Assembly: GCA_964016885.1 (NCBI GenBank)
Contig: OZ024743.1
Coordinates: forward strand, 63,550,001-63,614,000
Reading direction: 5' to 3'
Length of the DNA stretch: 64,000 bases
From: Eledone cirrhosa
Taxonomy: Eukaryota
A program made the translations under genes and the position numbers. Under the pieces are notes generated by a model. That model had not been told where the DNA came from. It saw only the letters and a program-made list of their open reading frames with translations, and searched no databases. Shown here one piece after another: positions 3,230 to 37,362 of the stretch (position 1 is its first letter; each line of letters opens with the position of its first letter).

Positions 3230-3940
3230 ATATATATATATAGGATTATGGTTTCCATTTATTAATATATTGTATATATAGAAATATATATGTGTCTTCA
3301 ACTCTTTAAAATTTTTGTGCAAACATTGACATACATATACACTCAATGCATTTCCTGTCTTAATCATGTTACAACAATAAGAAGTTCACTTTCCAATCAC
3401 AAGATCTGGAGTTCTAACCCTACATTTGTCCTTCTAAATAGTTATTTGTAAATATAAGCTGAACTTTCTATAATTATATCCTAGAAATAATTTTTATAGC
3501 CCTTTCTCCTACTTTCCTATACTGTCAGATGTGCCCTTCTCTACCTCCCCCCTTCTGTTGCTTGGTTTCATTTTTATCCATTTTTTCTTTTTTTCTTTTT
3601 CTTTCATATTTCCCTCAATATTTGCAATGTTATTGCGGACTGATTTATTGTCTGTAATTCTATTAAATTATTAAATAAATAAACTGACAATATTAAAAAA
3701 TAAAAGTTGACAGTCTGAAATATTAAAATATCATTCTAATTTTTAATCACTTCCATGTGCCAATCATCAATATAAACTATAGGGTTTCTCTTAGACAAAC
3801 CATTAATTTATCAAAACAAAAGCTTTCCAGTTTATCCAGTAATCCTGGCATACTAATTCTGAACTCCAAAAATTAAATATTTTCAATACAATTGCTATTA
3901 TTATTGATGGCATGAGTGCACTGGCAATGATAATAATAAT

Positions 3941-5976
3941 GATTTCATTTATTAGTCACAAGAGCCGACATGTAGGGGACAATACAAAGACAGAGACAGT
4001 GGGGGTTTACAATAAGGTCGAGTAAAAGTGCACGATGGCAAGACTAATTTAACAATGAAGATATAAAAATATAAAATAAACTATGCATAAATATAACAAA
4101 ATAAATTCCCCGATAGGGGGTGGACGACCCTGGGGTGACTCGGGTACCCCACCAATCCTGAACCGCTTGGTAGAGGGCAGTGAGTGCCTGGCAACATTCC
4201 AGGTGCCAGTCACCCAGTCTCGGTCTCTTCTTGACCCAGGACTGCAGCTCAGTCAGAGAAATGAGCTGCGGAAAGGCCCGTCTGATAAACGGCGACCATA
4301 CCTGTTCACCGTTGAGGCAGAATATCTGGAGATGTCGCAGCCTCAACGCATGTCTGCGCATCATTAGCCACGGCATGCCCAGCCCTCCGTGTAGAGGGTG
4401 CTGGCAACAGATGGACCGCCTCACCAACGGAACTTGATGAGGTGTGGACGGGGGCAAGGCACGATGGTCAGGCGGTAGTAGATGACGGATGCGATGTACG
4501 CATTCGCCACCTCCGCGCGACCTTTCAATGATAGCTTCCTCCCAGCCCATTTTTGGGTGAGACTGGCTACTATGCTCGTTACCTCGTCCCAATTCTTTTC
4601 CACCTGGAGGTCTGGTCCGAACCAAACCCCGCGCGACTTTACCGGTCCGTCCGTCCAGCGCCCCACAACGCTGTTGGACAGCATGGGATTGCCTCTCCAG
4701 ATTCCGAGCTGCAAGCCCACTGACATTTCCGGGTTAAGTTTGGCTCCTGTCAACCTTTCATATTCCTTCAATAAAGTGCCAACCACCTCGATTTCTGAGG
4801 TGTTCGACACCATCATGGTGATGTCGTCCGCATAAGCCAACACCGCCTTTCCACACCCCGTTTGAGCAGGATGCCCTGCAACAGCTCCAGCTTCAGCAGT
4901 AAAGGCTCGAGAGTCAATATGTACAGAAGGGAAGAGAGAGGGCACCCTTGACAGACCAATCGGGAGAGCCGAAATGGTTCCGAGAGGTGGCCATTAACCT
5001 TGACCACCGAGCGTGTGCCGCTGTGCATTGCAGCAATCCAGCTTCTGAAGACAGGACCGAAGCCAGCTGCTTTGAGGACAAACTCCAGATACCGATGGTC
5101 GACCCTATCGAATGCTCTCGATTGATCTAAATTGATCAGTGCCCCACTGAAGCCAGGTTTACACCCTACCCTCTCTATGATGTATCGCATGAGGTGGAGA
5201 TCGTCATGTATGGACCTGGCTGGGATTGTGCAAGTTTGTGCCTCCTGAACCAAATCCTCGACGACAAGCGCCAATCTCTTTGCTAGCACCTTGGCCAAAA
5301 TCTTAAACTCTGTGTTGAGCAGAGTTATGAGCCTGAAGTTGTCTAATGTATCCCTCTTGTTCTCGTCTTTCCTTATCAGTGTCACCACTCTCCTACTCAC
5401 AGAACTGGGAATACTCCCATTCTGCTGCCAGTTGCAGTAGAGTGCTTCGAGGAGATCGGAGAACAAGTCTGGCATATTTACGTAAAGCTCGTAGGGCAGG
5501 CCATCCAAACCGGGTGACTTGCGCCTCATGCAGCTGACAAGGGCGTCCTGAATTTCAGCTGAAGTAATCGGCCTTTCGCAGCGCTCAGCGTCGAGCGTCG
5601 AGATGCGCGGAAAGCCATCAAGGTAGGGACTGAAATCCGCTACTCTCTCTGACTCGTCACTCTCCCCGAACAACCGAGCAAAGTGCTGGCGAAAGGCCTC
5701 ACACATCCGCTTGGAATCGTTTATCTCGTGTCCGTCTCGGTTCACCAAAGACCGAATTGTGGTTTTATTACCATGCTGCACCTCCGCCATGCAGGCCCAT
5801 TGAACAGCTTTGGTTCCCTCATTTCTCAGTGCACCGCCTTAGCTCTGACAATGCAACCTTCGTGTTTCGCATTGAAGAAATGGTCTAATGCCATTCTTGC
5901 CGCTAACACGTCAGTTGCAATGCCACTACAAGAAGCCTCGTCTAACTTATCTATCAGCTCCCCCTCCTTTCTATTT
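3941..5976 (-). mobile_element. Tx1/L1-clade LINE, 5'-truncated, frameshifted and internally deleted copy
   Basis: ORF fragments 4813-5790, 4421-4945 and 4044-4625 are homologous to the intact ORF2 (KSPGLDG, LDQSRAFDRV, YADD); putative TSD TGATAATAATAAT at 3928-3940 and 5977-5989. Confidence 0.92.
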
Positions 5977-5992
5977 TGATAATAATAATAAT

Positions 5993-6197
5993 TTGTAATT
6001 TTAGCAGAAGACCAGCGAGTTAGGTGAATGGAAAGTTGTTTATATCAACCCCAGTACTTTACTGGTACTTATTTTTTTGATCTCAGAAGGATGAAATGCA
6101 AAGTTTACCTCAGCAGGTAATCAGAATGTAAAAAGGTGAACCCAATGCTGCAAAGCATTTCTACCAACACTCTAACGATTCTGTCAATCCACCACAT
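5993..6197 (-). mobile_element. SINE S1-related, older diverged copy
   Basis: Degenerate AAGGATGAAA.GCAAAGTT core and head; preceded by (AAT)4. Confidence 0.7.
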
Positions 6198-6207
6198 ACT
6201 AATAATT

Positions 6208-6395
6208 GTTTCTACTTTTGGCACAAGGTCAGCAAATACTTCAGTGCATTACTGGTGCTTTATTTTATTGACCCCGTAAGGATGAAAGGCAAAATTAACC
6301 TCAGCGGGATTTGAACTTAGATCATAAAGGGCCATAACTCTATGCTACAAAGTATGGCGTCCAACCCTCTACAGATACTGCCAATCCACCGCCCT

Positions 6396-6396
<1 letters not shown>
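6208..6396 (-). mobile_element. SINE S1, full length
   Basis: Reverse complement of 2425-2612; bounded by AAT repeats. Confidence 0.88.
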
Positions 6397-6432
<36 letters not shown>

Positions 6433-6679
6433 GTTTCTTTATTGGCCACAAGGACTGACAGGAAGAAAGACATTAGAGACGGCCGAGGACGATACAATGT
6501 GGGTTTTGGCCATGTAAAAAAGGTTATAACAAGATAGAAATATCAAAAAAATCAAACAACAAAAAATTCCCCAATAGGGGGGAAACTTCCGAGGGTCACT
6601 CATGGCAAAAACCACACAAAAGACCACGGCCACCCTGCCCGCCAGGGCAAGCGCCCTCTCTTAGTTTTCCCACCCTCAG

Positions 6680-9600
6680 TCTACAGGCGCATACTCAGAG
6701 CGGGCCCATTCACTCGGACCAGATTCGCCACTTTCACCCACCTTTCAAGAAACTTACTAGAAGACAGCACTTGCCTCTCCACCCTGATTTTCCTCTTCAA
6801 GTGAAACTTGAAAAAGTTAATCGGGGATTGGCTGAAGAGGAAAGTGTCGTCTTCAACCCTTTCAACCTTGTCCACCACACAATCTCTTTCACTATAGCCA
6901 CCAGGCAGATGAAAACTGCCTGAGGTGTTATATGCACTATGGACTCAGTCGATAACAGGATCCATCCTACACGCGACAGTAGCTGTTCTACATAGCTCCA
7001 CAAGTCAGCAATGCTCGGGCACTGAACGAGTGCGTGCAGCAGAGTTTCGTCGCCCTGTGCGCATCTCGGACAGGCTTGGCTGACAGCACCTCCGTGCCTG
7101 TAGAGCTTATCCCGAACCGGCAACGCTTCCCAGAAGCACTGCCAGGCCAGGGATTTCTGGAAGTTGTCCATAGGCTCCAGTCTGAAAGTTATCTTGAAGA
7201 GAGCAAACAGCTGATCGTCTTCTACGCCCAGAGTCTCCCCAAGAACATTGTTGCTCTTTCCCTCGATTAGCCCTCTATAGAACGCCGAGGTGGATGTTCC
7301 ACTGATACTAGTGCCCAGCTGGTAGAGGGTAGGGAGTGCTTGGAAACATTCCAGCTTCCAAGCGCTATCCCTCTGTCTTTTCCTGATCCAGGACTGCAGC
7401 TCCGTCAAGGAGACGAGCTGGGGAAAAGCGCGTCTGGCAAACGGCGACCACACCTGTTCACCGCCAAGGAAGCACCAGAGATATCGCAGCCTCAGCGCAT
7501 GGTTGCGCATCATCAGCCACGGCATGCCTAGTCCTCCACGCAATGGGTATTGACAGCAAATGGATAGTCTGACCATAGGAGCACGTCCCTTCCACAAAAA
7601 GCGGAAGAGAAGGCGTTCCATTTTGGTCAGAGTTGGGCAGGGGCAAGGTACAACGGTCGGGTGGTAGCAGATGACGGACGGTATGTATGCATTCGCCACT
7701 CCGCCTGACCTTTCAGAGACATCATCCTCTCGGCCCATTTCTGGGTGAGAGAAGCCACCTTGCTCGTCACCTTGCTCCAGTTTTTCTCCATCTGGAGGTC
7801 CGGACCGAACCAGACCCCGAGCAATTTAACCAGTCCTTCTGTCCAGCGCCCCACAACACTTTTGGACGGCATGGACTTGCCTCTCCAGGTGCCGAGTTGC
7901 AAGCCCACTGACTTTTCCTGGTTTATCTTTGCTCCTGTCACCGCTTCGTATTCCTTGAGAGCGGCGCCGAGCATCTGGACGTGTTTGGTGCTCGACACCA
8001 CCATGGTGACGTCATCGGCGTAAGCATCCCAGTTCACGTGGGATCTCCCCTCATCGTCTCCAATTTGTTAAGTAACGGCTCTAGGGCCAGTACGTACAAG
8101 AGGGACGAGAGGGGCAACCCTGGCGGACCGAGCGCATGATGCTGAAATGCTGCGACAGGTGACCATTCACCCTTACAATCGAGCAGATGTCGCTGTGCAT
8201 CGCAGCGATCCAGCCCCTAAAAACGGGCCTGAAGCTGGCCACCTCGAGGACCGCAGCCAGGTACCGATGGTCGACCCTATCAAATGCTTTAGATTGATCC
8301 AAGTTGATCAGGGCCCCACCCATGTCAGGTTCCTTAACCACCCTCTCTATGATGTATCGCACGGGATGGATCTGTCCGGAATGGCGCAAGTCTGCGCCTC
8401 TCCCACCAGATCACTGATGACAAGCACCAATCTCTTTGCTAACACCTTGGCCAAAATCTTAAACTCTGCGTTTAGCAGAGTTATGGGCCTGAAGTTGTCT
8501 ATATTGTCCCCTTTGTTCGGGTCTTTTCTCAGCAGCATCCTCACTCCCCGGCTCACAAAGCTGGGAATGCTCCCGTTCTGCTGCCAATTGCAGTAGACAT
8601 CTGCCAAGAGGTTGCCGAACAAGTCTGGCATATTCGCATAAAGCTCGTAAGGCAGACTATCCAAACCTGGCGATTTACCCCTCGTACAGTCAGCAGTCAG
8701 ACATTGCTTCCCGTATTTCACCTGCTGTTATCGGCTTTTCGCAGCACTGCACTGCGGTCATCGAGAGCCGCACAGCTGTCCGCCGAGGTATGCATCGAAG
8801 TCCATACTCCGATCCGGCCTGCCGCCGCTCCCGAACAATTGAAAAGCTGCACACATCTGCTCGGGTTCGAGCAACATGCGCCCGTTTTGATCAGGCAAAG
8901 ACTGAATTGTGGACTTGTTGCCACATCGTGCCTCCACCACCTGGGCCCATTGAACGGCTTTCGCTCTAGCTCTGACAACGCAGCCTTCATGCTTTGCGTT
9001 GAAGAATTGGTCGAGTGCCAATCTCGCTGCAAGCACGTTGGTTGCGATGCCTGTCCTAAACGCCTCTTCTAGCTTTCTAACTAACTCTCCTTCTACTCTA
9101 TTTTCCTCTATCACTACTCCTTTGCTAAACCTTATCGATTCTACTCTAATAGCCCCTTTCAGAGTAAACCACCACCTGTTGTTGACGATCGCACCTGTCA
9201 ACGTACGCTTAACTAATTCGCTAATCCGGTCTCTGTAAGCTTTATGCGCCGGGAACGACGCATTCAGCTTCCAGTAGCCGGACCCTTGCCTATGGAGTCT
9301 ATCAAAGTCAACTTCACAGATCACAAATTTGTGGTCCGTGTAGTCGACTACTTTAAATTGTGGACAGCCTACACTAGCCTTATCTGTTTCCCTACAGAAT
9401 GCCCTATCTAAATATAATCTGGATGACCCGATGCGGTTTCCCCATATCCACATTGGCACATTCAGATAATCCAGTCTATACCTGTCAGACAGTTCAAAAC
9501 ATCTGAGCAGGTTGTTGAGGCTTTTACACCCTCCTGCCCTGTCTACTAGCCCCACATAATCCCAGCGTGCATCTAAGATAAATTTGGCCATCCTGCTCCT

Positions 9601-9943
9601 GTTGGGGCGTAGACGGCTACTAGCCTGACAGCATTGCCTTCGCTGCCAGTCATGTCCAGCACCACCGACTTACCGTCTGGGTCCAGAAAGATGGCCCGTA
9701 TGGCAAGATCCAAGCCTCTTCGAAAAAGCACGGCAACCCCTCCCCTTGAACCTGAATGGCTGGGAGATGCGTATACATCGTAGCCGCCGAAGATTGGTGC
9801 GAAGGCTCGTCCTTCGGAGATTCTGGTCTTGCTGATGGCCACCACATCTATATTTAGTGACCTGAAGTCGTTGAGCAGGTGACCCTGCTTCCAAGATTAC
9901 CCAGGCCACGTACATTTATACTGCCTATTCTAAGTATGGCCAA
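6680..9943 (-). pseudogene. ORF2 (APE endonuclease + RT + CCHC) of subfamily A, multiple frameshifts
   Basis: Pieces 9573-9845, 8758-9591, 8347-8721, 8081-8389, 7627-8037 and 6797-7738 are collinear with the intact 1139-aa ORF2. Confidence 0.92.
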
Positions 9944-9975
9944 GTTGGATGAGAAACGGGGTAAGTGAGAAAGGA

Positions 9976-11967
9976 TCACTTACCTTGATTTTGTGGTGAA
10001 GGGACAGTAGAATCGTCCCTTTGGCTGGTCATGGGTGTTTCCAAGAGGATGTCGGTGTAACTGACCCTCTGAAGTCTCCAACTACGTTGGGGAATTTTTC
10101 TTTTAACAGTTTGTAATGTTCTATTTTGATTTCAATTATGTTTATGTTTTTCGAGAGAGTTCTTGGTGTTGGTGGGGTGTAGTAATGTTTTTCTGTGATG
10201 TCTGTGTGCTGCTTTATATGTTGTAAGAGTTCTTTATTTGCCATGTTTATGACTGTGTACTTTTTGGGAGGAGGGGTGATTTTGTTTCTGTTTTCTTGTT
10301 GCTGTTGGGTGTGTGTGTTTTGTTGTGTTTGCGATGTTGGTGTTTTTGGTGATGCTGGTGGTGGTTTGGTTGTTGTTGGTGGTGATGCTTGTGGTGGTGA
10401 TGGTGATGGTGGTGGTGTTGCTGCAAGTCTCCTTGCAGCCTTTACCCCTCTTTGTCTACCTTCGCTTTTGGAGGGTGAAGCTAAGGGGTTTTTCCTTTTT
10501 TGTTTTTTTGTGGCAGACCGTTTGCCACTTCCCTCCCACCTCACACTCCATGTCGGATTCTGTGACGTCTGGGAGGGGTATGAGCTCCACTGCTGTTGGT
10601 GTTGGTAGTGGAGCCCTCTCCGGCGATTTTTCCGCCGGTGTAGCTACTGCGACTGTTGGTGTTGCCGCCACTGCTGCCGCTGTTTTAGTTGTCCGTGGCC
10701 TTGGTATGGGTGCCATGGACGTTGCCCTCCTACTCACCGTGGAAGGGTCTTCTGCCTCTGTTGCCTGCCCTGCTCTTGGTAGCAACGGATCAGGCGTTGG
10801 AAGGAGGGGGCCCTCTTATTGGCTGTCTTCTGCGGGCAGAAGGTCCTGAGGTGACCCTTCTGCCCACAGAGATAGCACTTTGGGCGCCTTCCTTCCATGC
10901 TTATAGGGAGTTGGAGCCCTTCTTCGAGGTCTATGATGTCTGGGATGGCCTCAATGCACTCCTGGTCAGTTTGTATTAGCATTTGCATGCCTATTCCTGA
11001 CCAGTTCTCTCTTCCCATTCCCTGTATTTGCAGTATGGTGGTCTTCTCCTCGATTCCAGCCAGTACAGACGCGGTCAGCCAAGGTATGGGCACGTTGGGT
11101 GGGACCTGGGTCACTTTGACCCTCCTAATTTTCTGCCCGCAGTAGGAGAGCACCAAGACTATCTCCTCACTCTTTAGGGTTTCCAAAGAGTGAGATTCCG
11201 CCTCTTGGAGGGTGGAAAAAAGTACGTCTACAGTGGCGTACTTTTTGCCTCGGGTGATGTGGGTTTTGCACGCCCAGACACACCCCAAGGCCTTTTGGAT
11301 TTGAGCGTCTGTGGCTCTCTCCACCTGATGTGACATTTTGCTTACAGTGCGGTAAGTCACCATGCGCAACTTTGAAGAAATCGGGTGGAGGTTTCAGGGA
11401 AACTCTATTGTCGTTTCTTGACACCATGGCTCTTGCGACTGCCATCTCCTCCTCCGTGACTAGCACTGTCTTTATATTTCGGGCCACATCTGCGAAAGAT
11501 GTGGCCCCTTTTTCAGCGGCACCATTATTGCTGCTACTACTGCTGCTACTGGCCTTGTTGTTGGTGCTGTTGTTATTGCTATTGCTACAAACGGTGTTGT
11601 TGGTGTTGTTGCTGTTATCACTGTTGTAGTTGGTTGTGTTTTTGGTGCCACCGTTGTTGTTGTTTTCGGTGCAATTTGTATTGTTGCTGTTGGTGTTGTC
11701 GTTGTTTATTTTCTTGTTAGTGGTATTAATATCGTTGTTGCATTTGTTGTCATTTTTTTCTGTTGTCTGTATTTTGGTTGACGCTGTTATTATTGTAGTT
11801 GGTGTGGTAATTTTTTCAAAATTCGTGTTCTCAGTGTTGTTGTCTTTGTTCACGTTGTTTGTGGTGGTGTTTGTTGTATGAATTTCACTAACCCTCCTCT
11901 CAACTGTTACGCCGTTGTCACACGACAGCAGGCATATTGCGGGGGGGGGGGGGGGGGGCTCAGCCAT
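9976..11967 (-). pseudogene. ORF1 (Gag-like nucleic-acid-binding protein) of subfamily A, frameshifted
   Basis: Pieces 11167-11967, 10734-11369, 10456-10785 and 10029-10544 share ERATDAQIQKALG, THITRGKKYATVDVLF and LPDVTESDMECEVG with the young ORF1. Confidence 0.9.
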
Positions 11968-12181
11968 GTTTTTTTTGTTTTTCTTTAAATTTTCAAAAGT
12001 AAAATGTTCAAATATTGTTCAAATATTTGGGCCCCTTCACAGGGCAAAGTCCCTTACACAACAAGAAAAATTTAACAACAAATAATTTTAACAGGCAAAT
12101 AAAGTGACTTACTGGGAGCGAGCAAAAGACGTCTGATTAGACCAATAATAATAATAATCATTTTCCAATAATAATAATAAT

Positions 12182-12284
12182 TGTTTCTACTTTTGGCGGG
12201 ATTTGAACTCAGAATGGAAAGGGACGTAACTATGCTAGAAAGCATGGCGTCCGACCCTCTACCGATACTGCCAATTCACCACCT

Positions 12285-12286
<2 letters not shown>
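12182..12286 (-). mobile_element. SINE S1, internally deleted (tRNA head fused to extreme 3' end)
   Basis: TGTTTCTACTTTTGG joined directly to CGGGATTTGAACTC; central domain absent; AAT tracts on both sides. Confidence 0.82.
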
Positions 12287-12333
<47 letters not shown>

Positions 12334-12593
12334 TTTCTTTATTAACCACAAGGGTTTACATAAAGTAGACATTAAGGACAGTGCAGGACAATGCAGGACG
12401 GTACAAATGGGCATTTCTGCGTGTAAAAAAACAAAAACAGAGGATGTAACAAAAATAACAATGAAAATAACAATGAAAAATTCCCCAATAGGGGGGAGAC
12501 TTCGGAGGGACATTTGTGGAGAAAGCCCAGTAAAAAGCCACAATGACCCTGACCACCAAGGCAAGTGCCCTCTCCCAGTTTTCCACCTTTAGT

Positions 12594-15500: not shown

Positions 15501-16013
15501 ACGCCTGAGCAGGTTGGTGAGGCTCTTGCACCCTCCACCCCTATCCGCTAATCCCACACAGTCCCAGCGTGCATCTAAGATCCCGTTCCAGTCGCCCACT
15601 AACACTAAAGAGCGGGACGTTCCAAGAAAGGTCTCCAGACGCCGGAAGAAATCAGGCCGCCCTGCTCCTGTCGGGGCATAGACGGCCACTAGCCTGAAAG
15701 CTTGCCCGTCTCCGCTGGTCACGTCCAGCACCACCAGCTTACCCTCTGGGTCCAGGAAGATAGCCCGTATGGCGAGATCCAAACCTCTCCGAAAAAGCAC
15801 AGCAACTCCTCCACCGGATCCAGGACGGCTGGGAGATGCGTACACATCGAAGCCGCCGAAGATCGGTGCGAAGGCCCGTGCTTCGGAGATTCTGGTCTCG
15901 CTGATGGCCACTACATCTATGTTTAGTGACCTGAGGTCGTTGAGCAGGTGACCCTGCTTCCATGACGACCCCAAGCCACGCGCATTTATGCTGCCTATTC
16001 TGAGTGAGGTCAT
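12594..16013 (-). CDS. ORF2p, 1139 aa: APE endonuclease, reverse transcriptase, C-terminal CCHC
   Basis: SINARG/SET/VYAP/GDWN/YLDR/TDH (APE); KSPGLDG, NFRPITLLN, LDQSKAFDRV, RQGCPLS, YADD (RT); GGLG and CPRC-x8-H-x4-C typical of the L1/Tx1 clade. Confidence 0.96.
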   Translation of the reverse strand: MTSLRIGSINARGLGSSWKQGHLLNDLRSLNIDVVAISETRISEARAFAPIFGGFDVYASPSRPGSGGGVAVLFRRGLDLAIRAIFLDPEGKLVVLDVTSGDGQAFRLVAVYAPTGAGRPDFFRRLETFLGTSRSLVLVGDWNGILDARWDCVGLADRGGGCKSLTNLLRRFELSDRYRLDFPNVPMWTWTNRIGSSRSYLDRVFCREIDRSSIGCPQFKIVSYTDHKFVICVLDLDRLHRRGPGYWKLNASLPARKAYRDRISELVKRALTGAIVNNKWWFALKRAIRIESIRFSKALAIEKNRAEGELVRKLDEALSKGIATDVLAAKLALDQFFNAKHEGCVVRARVRALRHEGTKAVQWARVAEARRGNKATIRSLVDHDGRMLLDPGQMCEAFQRHFAQLFGGSGGPGRGMDFSVYLDGLPRLSATEAKCCEKPITAAEVREAMTGCTRGKSPGLDGLPYELYVQMPDLFGGLLADVYCNWQQNGRIPSSVSRGAVALLRKDPNKGDNIDNFRPITLLNTEFKILAKVLAKRLALVVGGLVGEAQTCAIPDRSIHDNLHLMRYIVERVAREHGTGGSLINLDQSKAFDRVDHRYLAAVLRAAGFGPVFRGWIAAMHSDICSVVRVNGHLSEPFNIMRSVRQGCPLSSLLYVLTLEPLLHKLETLRGVPRELGCGRSVSAYADDVTVVVSNAKHIEAIGTTLREYEAVTGAMINQEKSVGLQLGTWRGRSMPSNSVVGRWTDGPVKLLGVWFGPDLQTDKNWDEVTSRVASLTQKWAERKLSLKGRAEVANAYIASVICYRLTVVPCPKPRLTALERLLFRFLWKGRAPMVRRSICCQHPLRGGLGMPWLMMRRHALRLRHLHLFLDGDQVWSPFARRVFPQLVSLTELQSWVKRRPRGSAWRLECLQALTALDQSGNVIGGNSTSAFYRGLVEGKSDDVLGETLGVDENQLANLFGRTFGPGPMDNFQKSLAWQCYRGALPVRDKLYRHGGAVSRACPRCAQGDETVLHALVQCPKIADLWVYVEHLLSRLGRIQLSSESIVRIAPPSSFSREGQAVFICLVAMAKEIVWWTRLKGLKTSTYLFGDALIDFFKFHLKRKIRVEKEVLSSQHFVERWVREARMARVNGPTLSIYL

Positions 16014-27700: not shown

Positions 27701-28125
27701 CAGTCGCCCACTAACACTAAAGAGCGGGACGTTCCAAGAAAGGTCTCCAGACGCCGGAAGAAATCAGGCCGCCCTGCTCCTGTCGGGGCATAGACGGCCA
27801 CTAGCCTGAAAGCTTGCCCGTCTCCGCTGGTCACGTCCAGCACCACCAGCTTACCCTCTGGGTCCAGGAAGATGGCCCGTATGGCGAGATCCAAACCTCT
27901 CCGAAAAAGCACAGCAACTCCTCCACCCGATCCAGGACGGCTGGGAGATGCGTACACATCGTAGCCGCCGAAGATCGGTGCGAAGGCCCGTGCTTCGGAG
28001 ATTCTGGTCTCGCTGATGGCCACTACATCTATGTTTAGTGACCTGAGGTCGTTGAGCAGGTGACCCTGTTTCCATGACGACCCCAAGCCACGCGCATTTA
28101 TGCTGCCTATTCTGAGTGAGGTCAT
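24706..28125 (-). CDS. ORF2p, 1139 aa (copy 3)
   Basis: Intact open frame with all APE/RT/CCHC motifs. Confidence 0.93.
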   Translation of the reverse strand: MTSLRIGSINARGLGSSWKQGHLLNDLRSLNIDVVAISETRISEARAFAPIFGGYDVYASPSRPGSGGGVAVLFRRGLDLAIRAIFLDPEGKLVVLDVTSGDGQAFRLVAVYAPTGAGRPDFFRRLETFLGTSRSLVLVGDWNGILDARWDCVGLADRGGGCKSLTNLLRRFELSDRYRLDFPNVPMWTWTNRIGSSRSYLDRVFCREIDRSSIGCPQFKIVSYTDHKFVICVLDLDRLHRRGPGYWKLNASLPARKAYRDRISELVKRALTGAIVNNKWWFALKRAIRIESIRFSKALAIEKNRAEGELVRKLDEALSKGIATDVLAAKLALDQFFNAKHEGCVVRARVRALRHEGTKAVQWARVAEARRGNKATIRSLVDHDGRMLLDPGQMCEAFQRHFAQLFGGSGGPGRGMDFSVYLDGLPRLSATEAKCCEKPITAAEVREAMTGCTRGKSPGLDGLPYELYVQMPDLFGGLLADVYCNWQQNGRIPSSVSRGAVALLRKDPNKGDNIDNFRPITLLNTEFKILAKVLAKRLALVVGGLVGEAQTCAIPDRSIHDNLHLMRYIVERVAREPGTGGSLINLDQSKAFDRVDHRYLAAVLRAAGFGPVFRGWIAAMHSDICSVVRVNGHLSEPFNIMRSVRQGCPLSSLLYVLTLEPLLHKLETLRGVPRELGCGRSVSAYADDVTVVVSNAKHIEAIGTTLREYEAVTGAMINQEKSVGLQLGTWRGRSMPSNSVVGRWTDGPVKLLGVWFGPDLQTDKNWDEVTSRVASLTQKWAERKLSLKGRAEVANAYIASVICYRLTVVPCPKPRLTALERLLFRFLWKGRAPMVRRSICCQHPLRGGLGMPWLMMRRHALRLRHLHLFLDGDQVWSPFARRVFPQLVSLTELQSWVKRRPRGSAWRLECLQALTALDQSGNVIGGNSTSAFYRGLVEGKSDDVLGETLGVDENQLANLFGRTFGPGPMDNFQKSLAWQCYRGALPVRDKLYRHGGAVSRACPRCAQGDETVLHALVQCPKIADLWVYVEHLLSRLGRIQLSSESIVRIAPPSSFSREGQAVFICLVAMAKEIVWWTRLKGLKTSTYLFGDALIDFFKFHLKRKIRVEKEVLSSQHFVERWVREARMARVNGPTLSIYL

Positions 28126-28159
28126 GTTTAAATAGAGTGGAAAAGATGGGAAAGACCAC

Positions 28160-29733
28160 TTACCGTACTTTTGGTAGAGGAGGGATGGTTTTTACATCCC
28201 TTTTCACTTGATCGTCTGGTGAAGGGACCGTTGAATCGTCCCTTCGGCTGGTCGTCGGCTCTTCTAAGAGAATGTCTGAATATACTCTTCGATTGATGGT
28301 TCCTCCTAGGTCCCTGAAATCACCAACTGCGTTGGGGAATTTCGTTTTAATGTTTGTGTATTGTTTCTGTGCTATTTTTAGCAGTCTTATGTTAGTTGGC
28401 GTTTTGATTGGTGCTGGTATTATGTAGTCCTGTTGTGAAATGTCTGTGTGTTCAATTATGTAAGTCATTAGTTTCTTGTTGTGTGTGTTTATTGCCGTGC
28501 ATTTGTTTTTCTGGGGGTGGGGTGTGGTTCTGCTATTTTCTTGTCGTTGTTGCTGGGTGTGTGTGTTTTGTTGTTGTGTTTGCGATGTTGGTGCTTGTGG
28601 TGGTGGTGTTGAAGGTGTTGTTGGCGGTGGGGTTGTCGCCGGTGGTGATGGTGGTGCTGGTGTGGGTGGTGATGGTGTTGGTGGTGTTGCTGCTGTGGGT
28701 CTCTTTGCAGTAGACTTTACCCTTTTCTCATTTCTTTCCTCCCTTTTCAAAGGCGACGATGCGCTGCTTCTGCGTTTGTGCCTTCTTGCGACCTTTTGCC
28801 ATCCCTCTCCCACCTCACACTCCATGTCTGATTCTGTAAGGTCGGGGAGGGGTACCAGCTCCACTCTTTCACTTGTTGTTGTTGGTGATGTTTGCACTGG
28901 AGTCTCTGTTGCAGCTGCATTTGGTATTGCTGTTGTTGTTGTTAATATTTCCACTGCTGCTGCTGTCTTTGATTTCCGTGGAGTGGGTATGGGTGCCACG
29001 GACCTATCGTTCCTGGTTGCCTCTTGTCCTGTTGCTGGTAGCCGTGGAGCCGGATTCGGAAGGAGGGGGGTTTTCTCCTTTCTCAGGGTCTTCTCGTTGC
29101 AGAAGGCCCTGAGGTGAGTCTTCGATCCACAGCGAAAGCATTTCGGGCGTTTGCCCTCAACACTTATGGGCAGTTGAGTGCCGTTATCGAAGTCTATCAC
29201 ATCCGGGATAGCTTCGATGCACTCCTGGTTGGTTTGGATTAGCATCTCAATGGAGGAGCCGACCCAATCTTCTCTTACTTTTTTCTGTACTTGCAGTACA
29301 GTTGTTTTGTCCTCGATTCCGACGAGGACAGACGCGGCCAGCCAAGAAGGGGTCATTCCGGGGGGGACGTGGGTCAGTTTGACCCTCACAATTTTTTGCC
29401 CGCAGTAGGAGGGCACCAACACCATTTCCTCGCTCCTTAGGGTCACTACTGATTGGGCCTTTGCCTCCTGGGGTGTGGCAAAAAGTACGTCTACGGTGGC
29501 GTATTTTTTGCCTCGGGTGATGTGCGTTTTCCTCTGCCACACAGACCCCAAGGCTTTTTGTATTTGGGCCTCTGTGGCTCTTTCCACCCTACGGGATTTT
29601 GTACTTACTGTACGGTACGTGACCGTACAGTGCTCTTGGGTTTCGAAAAAATTTTTCGCTGCCTTGCAGATTGCTCGGTGTCCGTTCTTTGTCACCATCT
29701 TCTTCGCTTCCTCTAATTCCTCATTTGTTATGA
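28160..29733 (-). pseudogene. ORF1, N-terminally truncated (copy 3)
   Basis: Begins at ITNEELEE; lacks the ATG and 5' UTR. Confidence 0.88.
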
Positions 29734-30007
29734 TAATAATAATAATGATTTCTTTATTAACCACAAGGGTTTACATAAAGTAGACATTAAGGACAGTGCA
29801 GGACAATGCAGGACGGTACAAATGGGCATTTCTGCGTGTAAAAAACAAAAACAGAGGATGTAACAAAAATAACAATGAAAATAACAATGAAAAATTCCCC
29901 AATAGGGGGGAGACTTCGGAGGGACATTTGTGGTGAAAGCCCAGTAAAAAGCCACAATGACCCTGACCACCAAGGCAAGTGCCCTCTCCCAGTTTTCCAC
30001 CTTTAAT

Positions 30008-33000
30008 TTACAGATATATACTCAGAGTAGGCCCATTCACTCGGGCCATTCTTGCTTCTCTCACCCATCTTTCAACAAAATGCTGGGAAGAGAGCACTTC
30101 CCTCTCTACTCTGATTTTCCTTTTCAAATGAAATTTGAAAAAGTCAATGAGAGCATCACCGAAGAGGTAAGTGCTCGTCTTCAGCCCTTTCAAACGTGTC
30201 CACCATACTATCTCTTTCACCATGGCCACCAGGCAGATAAAAACTGCCTGCCCTTCCCGGCTAAAGGAGGAGGGCGGGGCAATCCTCACGATGGACTCAG
30301 ATGATAGCCGGATCCGTCCTAAACGCGACAGCAGGTGTTCGACATAAACCCACAAGTCAGCAATTTTCGGACACTGGACGAGTGCGTGCAGGACGGTTTC
30401 GTCGCCCTGCGCGCATCTCGGACATGCCCGGCTGACGGCACCTCCATGCCTGTAGAGTTTATCCCGAACTGGCAAGGCTCCTCGGTAGCACTGCCAGGCC
30501 AGAGATTTCTGGAAGTTGTCCATAGGCCCTGGCCCGAAAGTTCTTCCGAAGAGATTGGCTAGTTGATTTTCGTCGACGCCTAGAGTTTCCCCAAGTACGT
30601 CGTCGCTCTTCCCCTCCACTAATCCTCTATAGAACGCCGAGGTGGAGTTTCCACCGATCACATTACCCGATTGGTCGAGGGCTGTGAGCGCCTGAAGACA
30701 TTCCAGTCTCCAGGCGCTCCCTCTCGGTCTTCGCTTGACCCAGGACTGCAGCTCCGTCAAGGAAACGAGCTGGGGAAAAACGCGTCTAGCAAACGGCGAC
30801 CACACCTGATCACCGTCGAGGAAGAGGTGGAGATGTCGTAGCCTGAGCGCGTGCCTGCGCATCATCAGCCACGGCATGCCCAGCCCTCCACGTAGCGGGT
30901 GTTGACAACAGATGGACCGCCTGACCATCGGAGCACGTCCCTTCCACAAAAAGCGAAAGAGCAAACGCTCCAGCGCAGTCAGGCGAGGCTTAGGACAAGG
31001 TACGACGGTTAGGCGGTAGCAGATGACAGACGCGATGTACGCGTTAGCCACCTCCGCTCGACCTTTCAGGGATAGCTTCCTCTCCGCCCATTTCTGGGTG
31101 AGAGAAGCCACCCTGCTCGTCACCTCGTCCCAGTTTTTGTCCGTCTGGAGGTCCGGACCGAACCAGACCCCTAGCAATTTAACCGGTCCGTCTGTCCAGC
31201 GCCCGACGACGCTGTTGGACGGCATGGACCTGCCTCTCCAGGTGCCGAGCTGCAGGCCCACTGACTTTTCCTGGTTGATCATTGCTCCTGTCACCGCTTC
31301 GTATTCTCTTAGTGTAGTGCCGATCGCCTCGATGTGTTTGGCGTTCGACACCACTACGGTGACATCGTCCGCATATGCTGACACGGATCTTCCGCATCCT
31401 AGTTCGCGCGGGACTCCCCTCAACGTCTCCAGTTTGTGCAGTAATGGCTCGAGAGTCAATACGTACAAGAGGGACGAGAGGGGACATCCTTGGCGGACCG
31501 AGCGCATGATGTTGAACGGTTCCGACAGGTGACCGTTCACTCTCACCACAGAGCAGATGTCGCTGTGCATGGCAGCGATCCAGCCTCTGAAGACGGGCCC
31601 AAAGCCAGCCGCCCTCAGGACTGCCGCTAGGTAACGATGGTCGACCCTATCGAAAGCTTTCGACTGATCTAAATTGATCAAGGACCCACCCGTGCCAGGT
31701 TCCCTAGCTACCCTCTCTACGATGTATCGCATGAGGTGGAGGTTGTCGTGGATGGATCTGTCGGGAATGGCGCATGTCTGCGCCTCTCCCACCAGACCAC
31801 CAACGACAAGCGCCAACCTCTTTGCTAGCACCTTGGCCAAAATCTTAAACTCTGTGTTTAGCAGAGTTATGGGCCGGAAATTGTCTATGTTATCCCCCTT
31901 GTTCGGATCCTTTCTCAGCAGTGCCACCGCTCCTCGGCTCACAGAACTGGGAATTCTCCCGTTCTGTTGCCAGTTGCAGTAGACGTCCGCCAAGAGGCCT
32001 CCGAACAAGTCTGGCATCTGTACGTAAAGTTCATAGGGCAGACCATCCAAACCAGGCGATTTACCCCTTGTGCAGCCAGTCATTGCCTCCCGTACTTCAG
32101 CGGCTGTTATCGGCTTTTCGCAACACTTCGCCTCAGTGGCCGAGAGCCGCGGCAGTCCGTCGAGGTAGACACTAAAGTCCATCCCTCTACCCGGCCCCCC
32201 GCTGCCCCCGAACAGCTGAGCGAAGTGTCGCTGAAAAGCTTCACACATTTGCCCGGGATCGAGTAGCATGCGCCCGTCGTGGTCCACCAAAGACCGGATC
32301 GTGGCTTTGTTACCACGACGCGCCTCCGCCACTCGGGCCCATTGAACGGCTTTCGTTCCCTCGTGTCTGAGAGCACGCACCCTAGCTCTGACAACGCAGC
32401 CTTCGTGCTTTGCATTGAAGAATTGGTCAAGGGCCAATTTCGCCGCAAGCACGTCGGTCGCAATGCCTTTGCTAAGCGCCTCGTCTAATTTTCTAACTAG
32501 TTCTCCCTCTGCTCTATTTTTCTCTATTGCTAAAGCCTTACTAAACCTAATCGATTCTATTCTGATCGCTCTTTTCAGAGCAAACCACCACTTGTTGTTG
32601 ACGATGGCTCCCGTCAACGCCCGCTTAACTAGTTCGCTAATCCGGTCTCTGTAGGCCTTGCGCGCTGGTAAGGACGCGTTTAGCTTCCAGTAGCCGGGTC
32701 CTCGTCTATGAAGCCTATCTAAGTCAAGCACACAGGTCACGAATTTGTGGTCCGTGTAGCTGACTATCTTGAATTGTGGACAGCCTATGCTAGACCTATC
32801 TATTTCCCTACAAAATACTCTATCTAGATATGATCTGGATGACCCTATGCGGTTTGTCCAAGTCCACATTGGCACATTCGGGAAATCCAATCGGTACCTG
32901 TCAGACAGTTCAAAACGCCTGAGCAGGTTGGTGAGGCTCTTGCACCCTCCACCCCTATCCGCTAATCCCACACAGTCCCAGCGTGCATCTAAGATCCCGT

Positions 33001-33427
33001 TCCAGTCGCCCACTAACACTAAAGAGCGGGACGTTCCAAGAAAGGTCTCCAGACGCCGGAAGAAATCAGGCCGCCCTGCTCCTGTCGGGGCATAGACGGC
33101 CACTAGCCTGAAAGCTTGCCCGTCTCCGCTGGTCACGTCCAGCACCACCAGCTTACCCTCTGGGTCCAGGAAGATGGCCCGTATGGCGAGATCCAAACCT
33201 CTCCGAAAAAGCACAGCAACTCCTCCACCCGATCCAGGACGGCTGGGAGATGCGTACACATCGTAGCCGGCGAAGATCGGTGCGAAGGCCCGTGCCTCGG
33301 AGATTCTGGTCTCGCTGATGGCCACTACATCTATGTTTAGTGACCTGAGGTCGTTGAGCAGGTGACCCTGCTTCCATGACGACCCCAAGCCACGCGCATT
33401 TATGCTGCCTATTCTGAGTGAGGTCAT
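30008..33427 (-). CDS. ORF2p, 1139 aa (copy 4)
   Basis: Intact; private residues FAGY, FVTC, RIRL, AMVK, VERE. Confidence 0.94.
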   Translation of the reverse strand: MTSLRIGSINARGLGSSWKQGHLLNDLRSLNIDVVAISETRISEARAFAPIFAGYDVYASPSRPGSGGGVAVLFRRGLDLAIRAIFLDPEGKLVVLDVTSGDGQAFRLVAVYAPTGAGRPDFFRRLETFLGTSRSLVLVGDWNGILDARWDCVGLADRGGGCKSLTNLLRRFELSDRYRLDFPNVPMWTWTNRIGSSRSYLDRVFCREIDRSSIGCPQFKIVSYTDHKFVTCVLDLDRLHRRGPGYWKLNASLPARKAYRDRISELVKRALTGAIVNNKWWFALKRAIRIESIRFSKALAIEKNRAEGELVRKLDEALSKGIATDVLAAKLALDQFFNAKHEGCVVRARVRALRHEGTKAVQWARVAEARRGNKATIRSLVDHDGRMLLDPGQMCEAFQRHFAQLFGGSGGPGRGMDFSVYLDGLPRLSATEAKCCEKPITAAEVREAMTGCTRGKSPGLDGLPYELYVQMPDLFGGLLADVYCNWQQNGRIPSSVSRGAVALLRKDPNKGDNIDNFRPITLLNTEFKILAKVLAKRLALVVGGLVGEAQTCAIPDRSIHDNLHLMRYIVERVAREPGTGGSLINLDQSKAFDRVDHRYLAAVLRAAGFGPVFRGWIAAMHSDICSVVRVNGHLSEPFNIMRSVRQGCPLSSLLYVLTLEPLLHKLETLRGVPRELGCGRSVSAYADDVTVVVSNAKHIEAIGTTLREYEAVTGAMINQEKSVGLQLGTWRGRSMPSNSVVGRWTDGPVKLLGVWFGPDLQTDKNWDEVTSRVASLTQKWAERKLSLKGRAEVANAYIASVICYRLTVVPCPKPRLTALERLLFRFLWKGRAPMVRRSICCQHPLRGGLGMPWLMMRRHALRLRHLHLFLDGDQVWSPFARRVFPQLVSLTELQSWVKRRPRGSAWRLECLQALTALDQSGNVIGGNSTSAFYRGLVEGKSDDVLGETLGVDENQLANLFGRTFGPGPMDNFQKSLAWQCYRGALPVRDKLYRHGGAVSRACPRCAQGDETVLHALVQCPKIADLWVYVEHLLSRLGRIRLSSESIVRIAPPSSFSREGQAVFICLVAMVKEIVWWTRLKGLKTSTYLFGDALIDFFKFHLKRKIRVEREVLSSQHFVERWVREARMARVNGPTLSIYL

Positions 33428-33462
33428 GTTTAAAATAGAGTGGAAAAGATGGGAAAGACCAC

Positions 33463-35560
33463 TTACCGTACTTTTGGTAGAGGAGGGATGGTTTTTACAT
33501 CCCTTTTCACTTGATCGTCTGGTGAAGGGACCGTTGAATCGTCCCTTCGGCTGGTCGTCGGCTCTTCTAAGAGAATGTCTGAGTATACTCTTCGATTGAT
33601 GGTTCCTCCTAGGTCCCTGAAATCACCAACTGCGTTGGGGAATTTCGTTTTAATATTTGTGTATTGTTTCTGTGCTATTTTTAGCAGTCTTATGTTAGTT
33701 GGCGTTTTGATTGGTGCTGGTATTATGTAGTCCTGTTGTGAAATGTCTGTGTGTTCAATTATGTAAGTCATTAGTTTCTTGTTGTGTGTATTTATTGCCG
33801 TGCATTTGTTTTTATGGGGGTGGGGTGTGGTTCTGCTATTTTCTTGTCGTTGTTGCTGGGTGTGTGTGTTTTGTTGTTGTGTTTGCGATGTTGGTGCTTG
33901 TGGTGGTGGTGTTGAAGGTGTTGTTGGCGGTGGGGTTGTCGCCGGTGGTGATGGTGGTGCTGGTGTGGGTGGTGATGGTGTTGGTGGTGTTGCTGCTGTG
34001 GGTCTCTTTGCAGTAGACTTTACCCTTTTCTCATTTCTTTCCTCCCTTTTCAAAGGCGACGATGCGCTGCTTCTGCGTTTGTGCCTTCTTGCGACCTTTT
34101 GCCATCCCTCTCCCACCTCACACTCCATGTCTGATTCTGTAAGGTCGGGGAGGGGTACCAGCTCCACTCTTTCACTTGTTGTTGTTGGTGATGTTTGCAC
34201 TGGAGTCTCTGTTGCAGCTGCATTTGGTATTGCTGTTGTTGTTGTTAATATTTCCACTGCTGCTGCTGTCTTTGATTTCCGTGGAGTGGGTATGGGTGCC
34301 ACGGACCTATCGTTCCTGGTTGCCTCTTGTCCTGTTGCTGGTAGCCGTGGAGCCGGATTCGGAAGGAGGGGGGTTTTCTCCTTTCTCAGGGTCTTCTCGT
34401 TGCAGAAGGCCCTGAGGTGAGTCTTCGATCCACAGCGAAAGCATTTCGGGCGTTTGCCCTCAACACTTATGGGCAGTTGAGTGCCGTTATCGAAGTCTAT
34501 CACATCCGGGATAGCTTCGATGCACTCCTGGTTGGTTTGGATTAGCATCTCAATGGAGGAGCCGACCCAATCTTCTCTTACTTTTTTCTGTACTTGCAGT
34601 ACAGTTGTTTTGTCCTCGATTCCGACGAGGACAGACGCGGCCAGCCAAGAAGGGGTCATTCCGGGGGGGACGTGGGTCAGTTTGACCCTCACAATTTTTT
34701 GCCCGCAGTAGGAGGGCACCAACACCATTTCCTCGCTCCTTAGGGTCACTACTGATTGGGCCTTTGCCTCCTGGGGTGTGGCAAAAAGTACGTCTACGGT
34801 GGCGTATTTTTTTGCCTCGGGTGATGTGCGTTTTCCTCTGCCACACAGACCCCAAGGCTTTTTGTATTTGGGCCTCTGTGGCTCTTTCCACCCTACGGGA
34901 TTTTGTACTTACTGTACGGTACGTGACCGTACAGTGCTCTTGGGTTTCGAAAAAATTTTTCGCTGCCTTGCAGATTGCTCGGTGTCCGTTCTTTGTCACC
35001 ATCTTCTTCGCTTCCTCTAATTCCTCATTTGTTATGAGGATTGTTTCCAAGTTTTTCGCAATACCTGCAAATGAGATTGGTTTTTCTCTGCTGTTGTTGT
35101 TGTCGTCAGAGCTGCTGGTACTTTTGTTGTTGCTGCAGGTACTACGACTACTGCCTCCGCCGCTGTTGCTGTGGTTGTTGTTGGTGTTGCTGCTGCTAAT
35201 GCTGTTGTTGTTTATGCTGCTGGTGATGCTGTTGCGGCTGCTACTGTTGTTTTCATTGTCACTGTTGCTGTTGTTATTACGGCTGCTACTGCTATTATTC
35301 CTGACGTCAGACGAATGAACTGGGTTTTCGTATTTCCCGCACACCTGTTTCGTCGCTGTCGTCGTCGTCGTGGAGAAACCTTGCACGCTTTGCACGAGAC
35401 TTTTCTTTTCTTTCGTCGCTTGCGAAAGAGAAGGGAGGGAGAGAGACACATTTAAAGAAGGGAGGGAGAGAGACAATCTTCTCTCTGCTGTAGTGATGAT
35501 TGAGGAAGAAGAAGACGGAATGAGTGGGAGTGACGTATGAAATTTCTTTTTCGTAGCCAT
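33463..35560 (-). pseudogene. ORF1 with +1 frameshift (copy 4)
   Basis: T7 at 34807-34813 versus T6 in other copies splits the ORF; could be a homopolymer sequencing error. Confidence 0.8.
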
Positions 35561-35773
35561 GTTTTTTTGTTTAAAATGAAATTTTGGGTACAAAACCCCA
35601 ATAACTGGTTATTTAACCCCGAAGGGCCAAATAACGGACAGAAAGACCCCTCTCACGAGGAGGAGGGTGTCTTTATCAACAATTTGGTTCAAGTTTTAAA
35701 CAATTTACAATTGTTTTAACGGTTAAAAATTACTATACCTTACAGAGCCGAGCCTCCGTCAACCATGGCATTC

Positions 35774-35809
<36 letters not shown>

Positions 35810-35811
<2 letters not shown>

Positions 35812-36017
35812 TTTCTTTATTGGCCACAAGGGCTGACATCAAGAAAAATATTACAGACGGCACAGGACGGTACGATGTGGGTTTTGTGTGTGTAAAGATT
35901 TTTATTATTTATATCAGAAAAGAAAAAGAAAAAAGACATAGAAACAGATATATATATATATATATAAACAATAAAAATGAAAATTCAAACAATGAAAAAT
36001 TCCCCAATAGGGGGGAA
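35810..36017 (-). mobile_element. Tx1-family 3' UTR stub (diverged subfamily)
   Basis: GATTTCTTTATTGGCCACAAGG terminus and TTCCCCAATAGGGGGG motif; bounded by AAT tracts. Confidence 0.85.
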
Positions 36018-36029
36018 AATAATAATAAT

Positions 36030-36123
36030 TGTTTTTCTACTTTTTGGCACAAGGCCAGCAATTATCCCAGTGTATTACTGGTACTTTATTTTATCGACCC
36101 CGTAAGGATGAAAGGCAAAGTTA
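36030..36123 (-). mobile_element. SINE S1, 5'-truncated
   Basis: 3' half of S1 following (AAT)4. Confidence 0.85.
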
Positions 36124-36133
36124 TGCTAATAAT

Positions 36134-36494
36134 GTTTTCTTTATTGACCACAAGTGTTGTCAAAAAGTATAACATTAAGGACAGCACAGGATAGAACAAA
36201 TGGGCGTTTCTGCATGTAAAAACAAAAACATAAAATAAAAACAAAGGATGTAACAAAAAAAGGAAACAAAGAAAAGTTCCCCAATAGGGAGGAGACCTCC
36301 AAAGGTCACTCATGGAGAAAGCCCACAAAAAAGCCACAATGACCCTGACCATCAGGGCAAGTGCCCTCTCCCAGTTTTCTACCTCCAATCTACAGGCACA
36401 TACTCAGAGCAGGCCCATTCATTCAGGCTATGCTTACCTCTCTCACCCATATTTCAACAAATTGCTGGGAAGGGAGCACCTCCCTCTCCATTCT
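36134..36494 (-). mobile_element. Tx1-family 3' stub (end of ORF2 + 3' UTR)
   Basis: Homologous to 12332-12695; AAT repeats on both sides. Confidence 0.88.
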
Positions 36495-36852
36495 AATAAT
36501 AATAATAAAGATAACAATCTCCACACACACACTCTATACAATAAGTACCTCATAAAACAAAGCAGCACAACTTGTGCAACATATAATCTACAAGATTTAA
36601 TAACCAATACAATAAAACAGCTCACATTACACATACCATACATGACAGAACAAACACTTAAATAACACAAGAAACAACAAGCTAACCTCCATAACAAAAC
36701 AAATCTGATGCAGTACACTAACAGAAGGAGTCTATACACCCTCAACCCTAACCCCAAAGAAGATGTGTACCTGATATTGTAATAAGAAACTTGCATGAAA
36801 TCGGCAAATAAATAATGATGATAACAACAATGATAAAAATTGTATCAATAAT

Positions 36853-37350
36853 TGTGTCTGCATTTTGGACAAGGCCAGCAATTTTAAGGGAAGGGAAAAG
36901 TTGATTAAATCGACACCAGTGTGTTACTGGTGCTTTATTTTATCGACCCCTTAAGGATGAAAGGCAAAGCTAACCTCAGCAGGATTTGAACTCAAAACAT
37001 AAAGGGCCATAAGTATTTGCCAATACTGCTAATAATAATTTAATTTATTTGCCACAAGGGCACAATATATGGGGACAGATACAACACAACCCAAAGTAGA
37101 GTTAGCATCAAATAAAGGAGAGAGGGGAAATCAACAATAAAATGTAGATACAACAATGACAATAGTAATAATTGTTTCTACGTTTGGCACAAGGCCAGCA
37201 ATTATCCCAGTGCATTACTAGTACTTTATTTTATCGACCCCGTAAGGATGAAAGGCAAAGTTAATCTTGGTGGGATTTGAATTCAGACCGTAAAGGGGCG
37301 TAACTCTATGCTAAAAAGCATGGCGTCCGACCCTCCACCGATACTGCCAC
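36853..37350 (-). mobile_element. SINE S1 / Tx1 3' stub / SINE S1 cluster ending the chain
   Basis: S1 at about 36853-37030 and 37172-37350; TTTATTTGCCACAAGGG Tx1-like terminus at about 37040; AAT spacers. Confidence 0.78.
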
Positions 37351-37362
37351 AATAAAGATAAC

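Follow-up and report, generated by a model that had tools for sequence, protein, structure and literature searches.

What makes copies of a retrotransposon pile up in one direction, with ATT repeats at the joints between them? The question is raised by a stretch of the Eledone cirrhosa genome, 64,000 nucleotides long and called the window here (contig C4, positions 63,550,001-63,614,000, in a 3.0-Gb genome). In the window, pieces of long and short interspersed nuclear elements (LINEs and SINEs) follow one another at 3941-37352, all on the minus strand. By its sequence the LINE is an L1-group retrotransposon of the kind without long terminal repeats (non-LTR), and there is very little doubt that it targets (ATT)n tracts. 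On the reading that we hold, with moderate confidence, the array is a stack of insertions that would have grown by nicking at the motif ATTA, with a tract left on both sides of each insertion.

We counted copies genome-wide by sequence patterns, not by similarity search, and read selected loci by eye. The family is dispersed over many contigs in thousands of copies: there were 2,824 matches to the 5' motif of the young subfamily and 9,471 to the 3' motif. Directly ahead of 2,416 of 2,505 exact 5' ends (96%) there was an in-phase (ATT)3, and an ATT tract preceded each of the 30 first-listed 5' ends, belonging to another copy in 11 of them. Random 5' flanks, named in an earlier note on this DNA as the finding that would speak against its claim of (ATT)n targeting, were thus not what we found. 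At the other end, 3,017 copies ran into (ATT)3, another 48 departed from it at base 4 and another 31 at base 5 (counts taken without an overall total of 3' ends). A tract was present at 90 of 106 sampled 3' ends, and poly(A) at none of the 106. Families of the Tx1 clade are counted as sequence-specific when more than 20% of their flanks carry one repeat (PMC4494074, in part), a level that both ends of this element exceed. The targets of Kibi and Koshi, (TC)n or (TTC)n, were not matched; (CTT)n was seen only beside ATT at a few loci.

A full-length element might bring its own 5' tract with it, which leaves truncated copies as the real test of targeting. Among the 106 sampled copies 38 were not full-length, and short target duplications were present, both as is usual in the L1 group. 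Seven of the 38 were dropped as internal deletions or duplicates. In 14 of the remaining 31, (ATT)3 lay within 30 nt of the 5' junction, compared with a background of 1.3e-4 per site (31 occurrences of ATTATTATT at 239,720 strand-positions in nearby non-array DNA). The same rarity of ATTATTATT means that the tracts at array junctions are not there by chance. The ATT target is real, since both the 2,416 exact 5' ends and these 14 truncated copies adjoin tracts. Beyond the 3' tracts of the 106 sampled copies lay a 5' end of the family (29), the reverse strand of the end of an element with a restriction-like endonuclease (RLE) (25), or a SINE head (7). Because so many tracts lead into reverse-strand RLE-type ends or family 5' ends, they must exist before the insertion. 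The reverse-strand elements encode a reverse transcriptase (RT), a CCHC motif and a PD..D..K nuclease, as expected for the Dong/R4 clade, to which we presume they belong. R4 elements carry an RLE (PMC4640811, in part). ATT tracts are common to these two unrelated element classes, in opposite orientation. At L002, L007, L016, L032, L035, L038 and L049 we saw two RT+CCHC+RLE families that adjoin (AAT)n at their 3' and truncated 5' ends, oppositely oriented.

The SINE, which we take to be tRNA-like from its shape, uses tracts differently. Its head had 42,051 exact matches genome-wide, some of them tandem satellites of the head, and its tail resembles the LINE end over about 20 nt; an Rfam search with the SINE gave no match. 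A tail was present at 24 of 30 SINE loci. Eighteen of these 24 showed a duplication (about 11-20 nt), which began ATTA in 17 of the 18, and (ATT)3 followed only 2 of the 24. A SINE whose tail is similar thus inserts at plain ATTA and rarely in tracts, so that the endonuclease, which the earlier note had made the only source of tract specificity, may not suffice for the choice of tracts. We infer that the LINE mobilises the SINE. If so, the nicking or priming motif would be ATTA, and tract choice would need something extra, most simply AUU repeats ending the LINE RNA. The LINE is also found at single ATTA or ATTC sites, with SINE-like duplications. At ten non-tract sites with a truncated LINE (L056, L043, L070, L164, L195, L262, L265, L285, L286, L288; seven of them from searches that selected for an absent tract), by-eye reading gave 7-19-nt duplications beginning ATT, with the 3' C joined straight to the target and no added tail. 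The SINE head also forms 45-nt tandem satellites (L222-L227; contig C1, about 10.4-10.54 Mb).

The earlier note also had every insertion duplicating its own target, a claim that failed at tract edges. In 16 copies (L140-L169, L190, L192) precisely one ATT unit separates the end from a long (CTT)n tract, and all 15 full-length copies before ATT(CTT)n had pure ATT, and no CTT, upstream. The fixed phase and the missing duplication at tract edges point to 5' joining by annealing. One candidate explanation, that the (AAG)n-tailed neighbours of these copies are later insertions splitting an ATT tract, gained little support, since at 13 of 15 no run of at least four ATT units occurred in the next 8-10 kb. 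An empty site read from the duplications of these neighbours gave convincing matches in 0 of 15 cases.

Stacks are common in this genome. Of the 106 sampled 3' ends, 46 had another copy on the same strand no more than 7 kb away, and they grouped into 13 pairs, 5 triples and one run of five; with uniform placement, about 0.6 of the 106 would be expected to have such a neighbour on any one side. Six of the 106 were found beside listed ones, giving the stack count a small upward bias. Since stacks of 2-5 copies occur often, the one in the window is an example of the long kind and not a singular site, and its role as a special landing pad is not supported. Most neighbours in stacks are independent, mostly unrelated insertions. 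A different relation was seen in 8 of 18 adjacent full-length pairs, in which the upstream copy repeats the spacer and/or the 5' part of its neighbour, over up to 2.9 kb; the other 10 had no such sign. For 1,291 nt L131 is identical to the copy downstream of it, and an interrupted tract of 42 nt is repeated as well; the body of L131, however, shows 5 differences from a copy at a distance of 0.9 Mb. The same pattern was found at L132, with identity to the neighbour's 5' end over 575 nt. C1_760 repeats 1,515 nt of the neighbour's 5' end together with the spacer, in which 620 of the 621 nt compared agree; C1_946 repeats 2,923 nt of its neighbour's 5' part, and C1_639 has 501 nt identical to its neighbour amid 246 differences. 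At C1_901, L122 and L302 a diagnostic spacer is repeated with little or no 5' identity. Among pairs with at least 15 differences, only 10 of 2,614 start with at least 500 identical nt, and 6 of those 10 are within one array.

It is likely, from these sequence comparisons, that new copies often complete their front end by copying the downstream neighbour. Duplication followed by gene conversion, or assembly error, would be alternative origins of such pairs. A single event, with priming before a resident copy, invasion, and synthesis back to the nick, would fit best because in several cases (L132, L302, C1_639, C1_901, C1_946) there is no element upstream to exchange with. A similar low-complexity spacer, 126-218 nt long, lies between copies in arrays on two contigs (L291/L292 on C2, L312-L314 on C7), which suggests that read-through RNA carried it. 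At L106 (C1, about 45.777 Mb) short 3' stubs with ATT tracts on either side recur every 395 nt.

The array in the window has the properties expected from these genome-wide observations in most, but not all, respects. The 15 element pieces, about the number originally reported, comprise four young LINEs (W1-W4, 5.3-6.0 kb each), one old full-length LINE, four LINE 3' stubs and six SINE pieces. That nearly every junction is pure (AAT)n was too strong: by eye, 12 of 16 boundaries have at least three pure ATT units, 2 have two units and 2 are degenerate. One degenerate boundary adjoins a gap of about 340 nt of non-element DNA at 36507-36850, and the chain is thus broken at that end. As the earlier note had observed, poly(A) is absent in the array after an AATAAA that lies 6 nt ahead of the element 3' end. 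The site is interstitial, as also stated there, with the array 63.55 Mb into a 378.8-Mb contig. There is no N within the array, and the sole gap in the window (200 N at 43194-43393) is 5.8 kb past it. Over ORF2 (the second open reading frame, ORF), the old full-length copy at 6432-12143 is 79% identical to W2; the stack holds subfamilies 70-79% alike, besides stubs and SINEs. The features are as follows.

3926..3940, minus strand: terminal ATT tract behind the last element
3941..5977, minus strand: old 5'-truncated LINE of the same lineage, RT fragment, 75% to young copies
5981..5992, minus strand: (ATT)4 tract
5993..6198, minus strand: older SINE copy
6204..6398, minus strand: SINE copy, then just two ATT units
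6399..6431, minus strand: (ATT)11 tract
6432..12143, minus strand: old full-length LINE, subfamily C, reading frames broken
12144..12181, minus strand: two (ATT)5 tracts, 8 nt between
12182..12286, minus strand: SINE with internal deletion
12287..12331, minus strand: (ATT)15 tract
12332..18361, minus strand: young copy W1, both ORFs open
12594..16013, minus strand: W1 ORF2, 1139 aa, with apurinic/apyrimidinic-type endonuclease (APE), RT and C-terminal zinc knuckle
16049..18148, minus strand: W1 ORF1, 699 aa, CCHC knuckle and core like an RNA recognition motif (RRM; ZCCHC3-like), low-complexity ends on either side
15355..21817, no strand assigned: 6,463-nt stretch, repeated with zero differences 6,056 nt further on
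18362..18385, minus strand: (ATT)8 spacer between W2 and W1
18386..24417, minus strand: young copy W2, both ORFs open
24418..24441, minus strand: (ATT)8 spacer between W3 and W2, equal in length to the W2/W1 spacer
24442..29733, minus strand: young copy W3, 5'-truncated at element position 740
29734..29746, minus strand: (ATT)4A spacer between W4 and W3
29747..35773, minus strand: young copy W4, ORF1 frameshifted, ORF2 open
35774..35809, minus strand: (ATT)12 tract
35810..36017, minus strand: LINE 3' stub, C-like end
36030..36123, minus strand: SINE 3' half, then (ATT)4
36136..36494, minus strand: LINE 3' stub, 78% to young copies, (ATT)4 ahead of it
36852..37030, minus strand: SINE fragment beside the non-element DNA
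37040..37130, minus strand: short LINE-like 3' tail, then (ATT)3; 5' limit approximate
37171..37352, minus strand: SINE copy at the start of the chain

Comparison of the young copies with others in the genome indicated that W1, W3 and W4 are independent insertions. W3 begins at element position 740 directly after (ATT)4, with 1 nt of microhomology, which bears out the earlier description of a truncated copy that still joins AAT; it has 9 differences from a copy on C1 and 21 and 25 from its neighbours. In an alignment of 79 rows, W4 has at least 25 differences from every one of the 78 others. The nearest outside copies to W1 are 10-12 differences off. W2 does not fit the claim that all four young copies are separate insertions. 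Its sequence is that of W1 as far as position 3007 and that of W3 from position 2601 on, the (ATT)8 spacers on its two sides are of the same length, and 6,463 nt are duplicated without a difference; by sequence it is an exact recombinant of W1 (5') and W3 (3'). Unequal exchange, neighbour copying from a W3-like template and mis-assembly are alternative routes to W2; it probably came about by exchange or assembly error. The marker alleles of W2 are not private, occurring at 32 and 43 places genome-wide.

The ORFs placed the element in the L1 group. ORF2 has Pfam matches to Exo_endo_phos, RVT_1 and zf-RVT, in the L1-group architecture of N-terminal APE, RT and C-terminal zinc knuckle, and resembles human L1 ORF2p (E 3e-52, 850 aa) more closely than R2 (6e-23, over the RT only). 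Two ORFs with an N-terminal APE are not the single ORF and C-terminal RLE of Dong/R4. A Pfam scan of ORF1 gave no significant match; a comparison with NCBIfam contributed nothing further. The CCHC motif is visible in its sequence, and its look-alikes in a protein atlas (scores 0.90-0.93) carry zf-CCHC and ZCCHC3-type RNA-binding domains. ORF1 is thereby of Type I (RRM and CCHC knuckle), which is consistent with Tx1 (PMC5203782, in part). Relatives with a named source came from Argonauta hians (62%), the cuttlefish Acanthosepion pharaonis (49%) and, at 41%, a sea cucumber, which makes an octopod the likely host. Protein searches returned none of the named Tx1 proteins, and Tx1 membership is supported by architecture only. 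Both ORFs are open in W1 and W2 and in 26 of 73 aligned full-length copies, a set that includes loci picked for odd flanks, and the family is likely to be active at present. Four subfamilies with different 5' ends all begin ATT|G. Subfamilies A, B and D have ORF2 and the 3' end in common (92-96%), and their 5' UTRs (untranslated regions) and ORF1s differ (ORF1 core 36-49% aa identity); their likeness breaks near the ORF1/ORF2 border (references L064, L100 and window 6432-12143). B, C and D have 5' ends and ORF1s other than those of A.

The growth of the array would require two steps at each insertion. In the first, the APE domain would nick the AAT strand just before or at the ATTA motif. The partner-like SINE would take any ATTA, and the LINE would be steered to tracts, most likely by RNA that runs on into AUU repeats and pairs with the nicked primer. 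In the second, the 5' end would be joined by homology and not by a plain staggered cut, annealing to the upstream tract or, with a copy just downstream, letting the cDNA invade that neighbour and extend through its 5' part and the spacer until the nick is reached. Every insertion would leave a tract on each side for the next copy. The fixed orientation and phase on the tract, the exact 3' ends on ATT without poly(A), the 7-19-nt duplications at rare non-tract sites and the mostly unrelated neighbours are the observed parts of this scheme. That a cephalopod Tx1-like lineage owes its tract specificity to RNA-DNA pairing added to a four-base ATTA nicking motif, and as a routine restores full-length copies from the 5' end of a neighbour, is a tentative proposal that we regard as possible. 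If it is true, stacking would serve to mend truncated copies and to bring promoters and ORF1s into new combinations, and the comparison of LINE and SINE would amount to a natural control on how site specificity arises in APE retrotransposons.

Other readings place the specificity, or the array itself, elsewhere. If the endonuclease itself recognised (ATT)n and made a plain target duplication every time, with the SINE moved by a different, laxer enzyme, then near-exclusive tract use at both ends would follow directly. Subfamilies A, B and D have an identical hairpin region, the part of the APE that aligns with the L1 endonuclease loop, and that of C is almost the same; in many young copies the closest 5' tract has 6-11 units, which fits duplication at the start of a tract; and target choice is described as set mainly by the endonuclease (PMC4494074, in part). 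A duplication of variable length, however, would not yield a single phase in 96% of copies, none of the 15 ATT(CTT)n sites has a duplication, and the LINE's insertions at single ATTA or ATTC resemble the SINE's. We judge this reading unlikely, though far from negligible. We give hardly any weight to the idea that there is no true targeting and that element RNA bearing ATT repeats at both ends is planted at random sites. It would account for the truncated copies with a 3' tract or ATT start and no 5' tract (17 of 31), and a low-complexity spacer recurring on two contigs suggests that read-through RNA can carry flanking DNA. But the 14 truncated copies that adjoin a tract could not carry a 5' leader, and tracts are often part of unrelated RLE element ends. 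Moreover, in 57 full-length copies, read by eye, duplication of unique sequence beyond the tracts was seen only where a neighbour had been copied.

The stack could also be mainly the product of tandem duplication at the DNA level, or a mis-assembly of near-identical copies. W2, a perfect recombinant between equal spacers, is what this would predict, and there are arrays on C7 and C2 with copies only 1-7 differences apart. It does not explain why W3 is closer to a copy on another contig than to its neighbours, why W4 differs from all the other aligned sequences, how a stack comes to mix diverged subfamilies, stubs and SINEs, or the neighbour-copied pairs that lack an upstream exchange partner. 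As an account of the whole array it is highly unlikely.

Several observations weigh against the preferred reading, a stack grown by ATTA nicking with homology-joined 5' ends. The mechanism is read from sequence. The strongest finding against a strict rule is that 17 truncated copies have no upstream tract, several of them without any duplication either. None of the ten non-tract sites received a copied AUU tail, and under the RNA-pairing idea they have to be exceptions. The missing duplication is not peculiar to full-length copies, because truncated copies at tract edges (L298, L299, L206) behave alike. There is an unexplained excess of junctions one unit before (CTT)n, 16 compared with 6 at all offsets from +6 to +36. 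The link between SINE and LINE is based on the likeness of about 20 nt of tail and the common ATTA. Finally, the 18 adjacent pairs were a non-random set, chosen by spacing from the first-listed places on contig C1, with one more pair dropped for an internal deletion.

Unidirectional head-to-tail LINE arrays are familiar from the telomeric HeT-A/TART and SART/TRAS elements. The array in the window is alike in this, but it is interstitial and not telomeric, its family is dispersed over contigs, and it is mixed with SINEs and RLE elements. Microsatellite-targeting Tx1 families are already known: Kibi in (TC)n and Koshi in (TTC)n in teleosts, and crocodilian families in (TTCC)n/(TTTC)n (PMC4494074, PMC3812793, both in part); other Tx1 targets include U2 and transposons (PMC4494074, in part). 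The present family is likewise an APE-type L1-group element in a microsatellite, and differs in its (ATT)n target, its cephalopod relatives and its thousands of copies, its kinship here being taken from architecture. We found no ATT-targeting Tx1 family in the literature searched; Kojima and Fujiwara 2004, the supplements of PMC4494074, Repbase or Dfam may list it. Dong, of the R4 clade, is specific for TAA microsatellites in silkworm, mosquito and snail (PMC3812793, in part), and Dong-R4 and L1-Tx1 elements have been recently active in Octopus vulgaris, an account given without target data (PMC13282606, in part). The LINE shares its microsatellite with Dong, and (AAT)n-flanked RT+CCHC+PD..D..K elements adjoin it here, but its endonuclease is of another class and its orientation on the tract is opposite. 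Tx1-Mar and SINEU are a LINE and a SINE with the same target preference, with tandem insertions around a duplication and a target that is duplicated, truncated or unchanged (PMC4494074, in part). The LINE and SINE described here also share a preference, but the target there is Mariner, and the SINE here keeps to tracts much less than the LINE does. Chimeric human L1 insertions have been ascribed to retrotransposition with copying of a resident L1 like that in synthesis-dependent strand annealing (PMC8087252, in part). They too have a new 3' part, a 5' part from a resident copy and an unusually long duplication, but they are rare and their donors distant, whereas here 8 of 18 adjacent pairs are involved and the donor is next door.

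The array is ordinary for this genome, and the interest lies mostly in the contrast between LINE and SINE and in the neighbour-templated 5' ends. A LINE and its likely partner SINE share a short motif but do not use tracts alike, and the other strand of the same repeat is occupied by an unrelated RLE family. How LINEs join their 5' ends is a long-standing open question. How APE-type retrotransposons home to microsatellites is not well understood either (PMC3812793, in part). The family offers thousands of natural junctions for both the targeting and the 5'-joining questions. For cephalopod repeat annotation and assembly, such stacks can be mistaken for duplications, or can contain them.

Outside the chain, two older LINE fragments of this lineage (about 70%) lie on the same strand at 41654-42288 and 48496-48773. 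Other retrotransposon pieces with RT and PHD-finger matches, (ATC)n-ended, are at 286-765, 837-1967, 50117-50986, 53723-55987 and 57179-58021. Among the public runs carrying words of the element no RNA data were listed, which says nothing about expression. At least half of a sample of words from 12332-18361 was present in 12 public runs with 9 organism labels from 8 studies, one of which may be the source. Public-run contigs at one array junction end at the repeat. Four public runs cover 30 of 30 bins of a 1-kb junction, compatible with close kinship or transfer.

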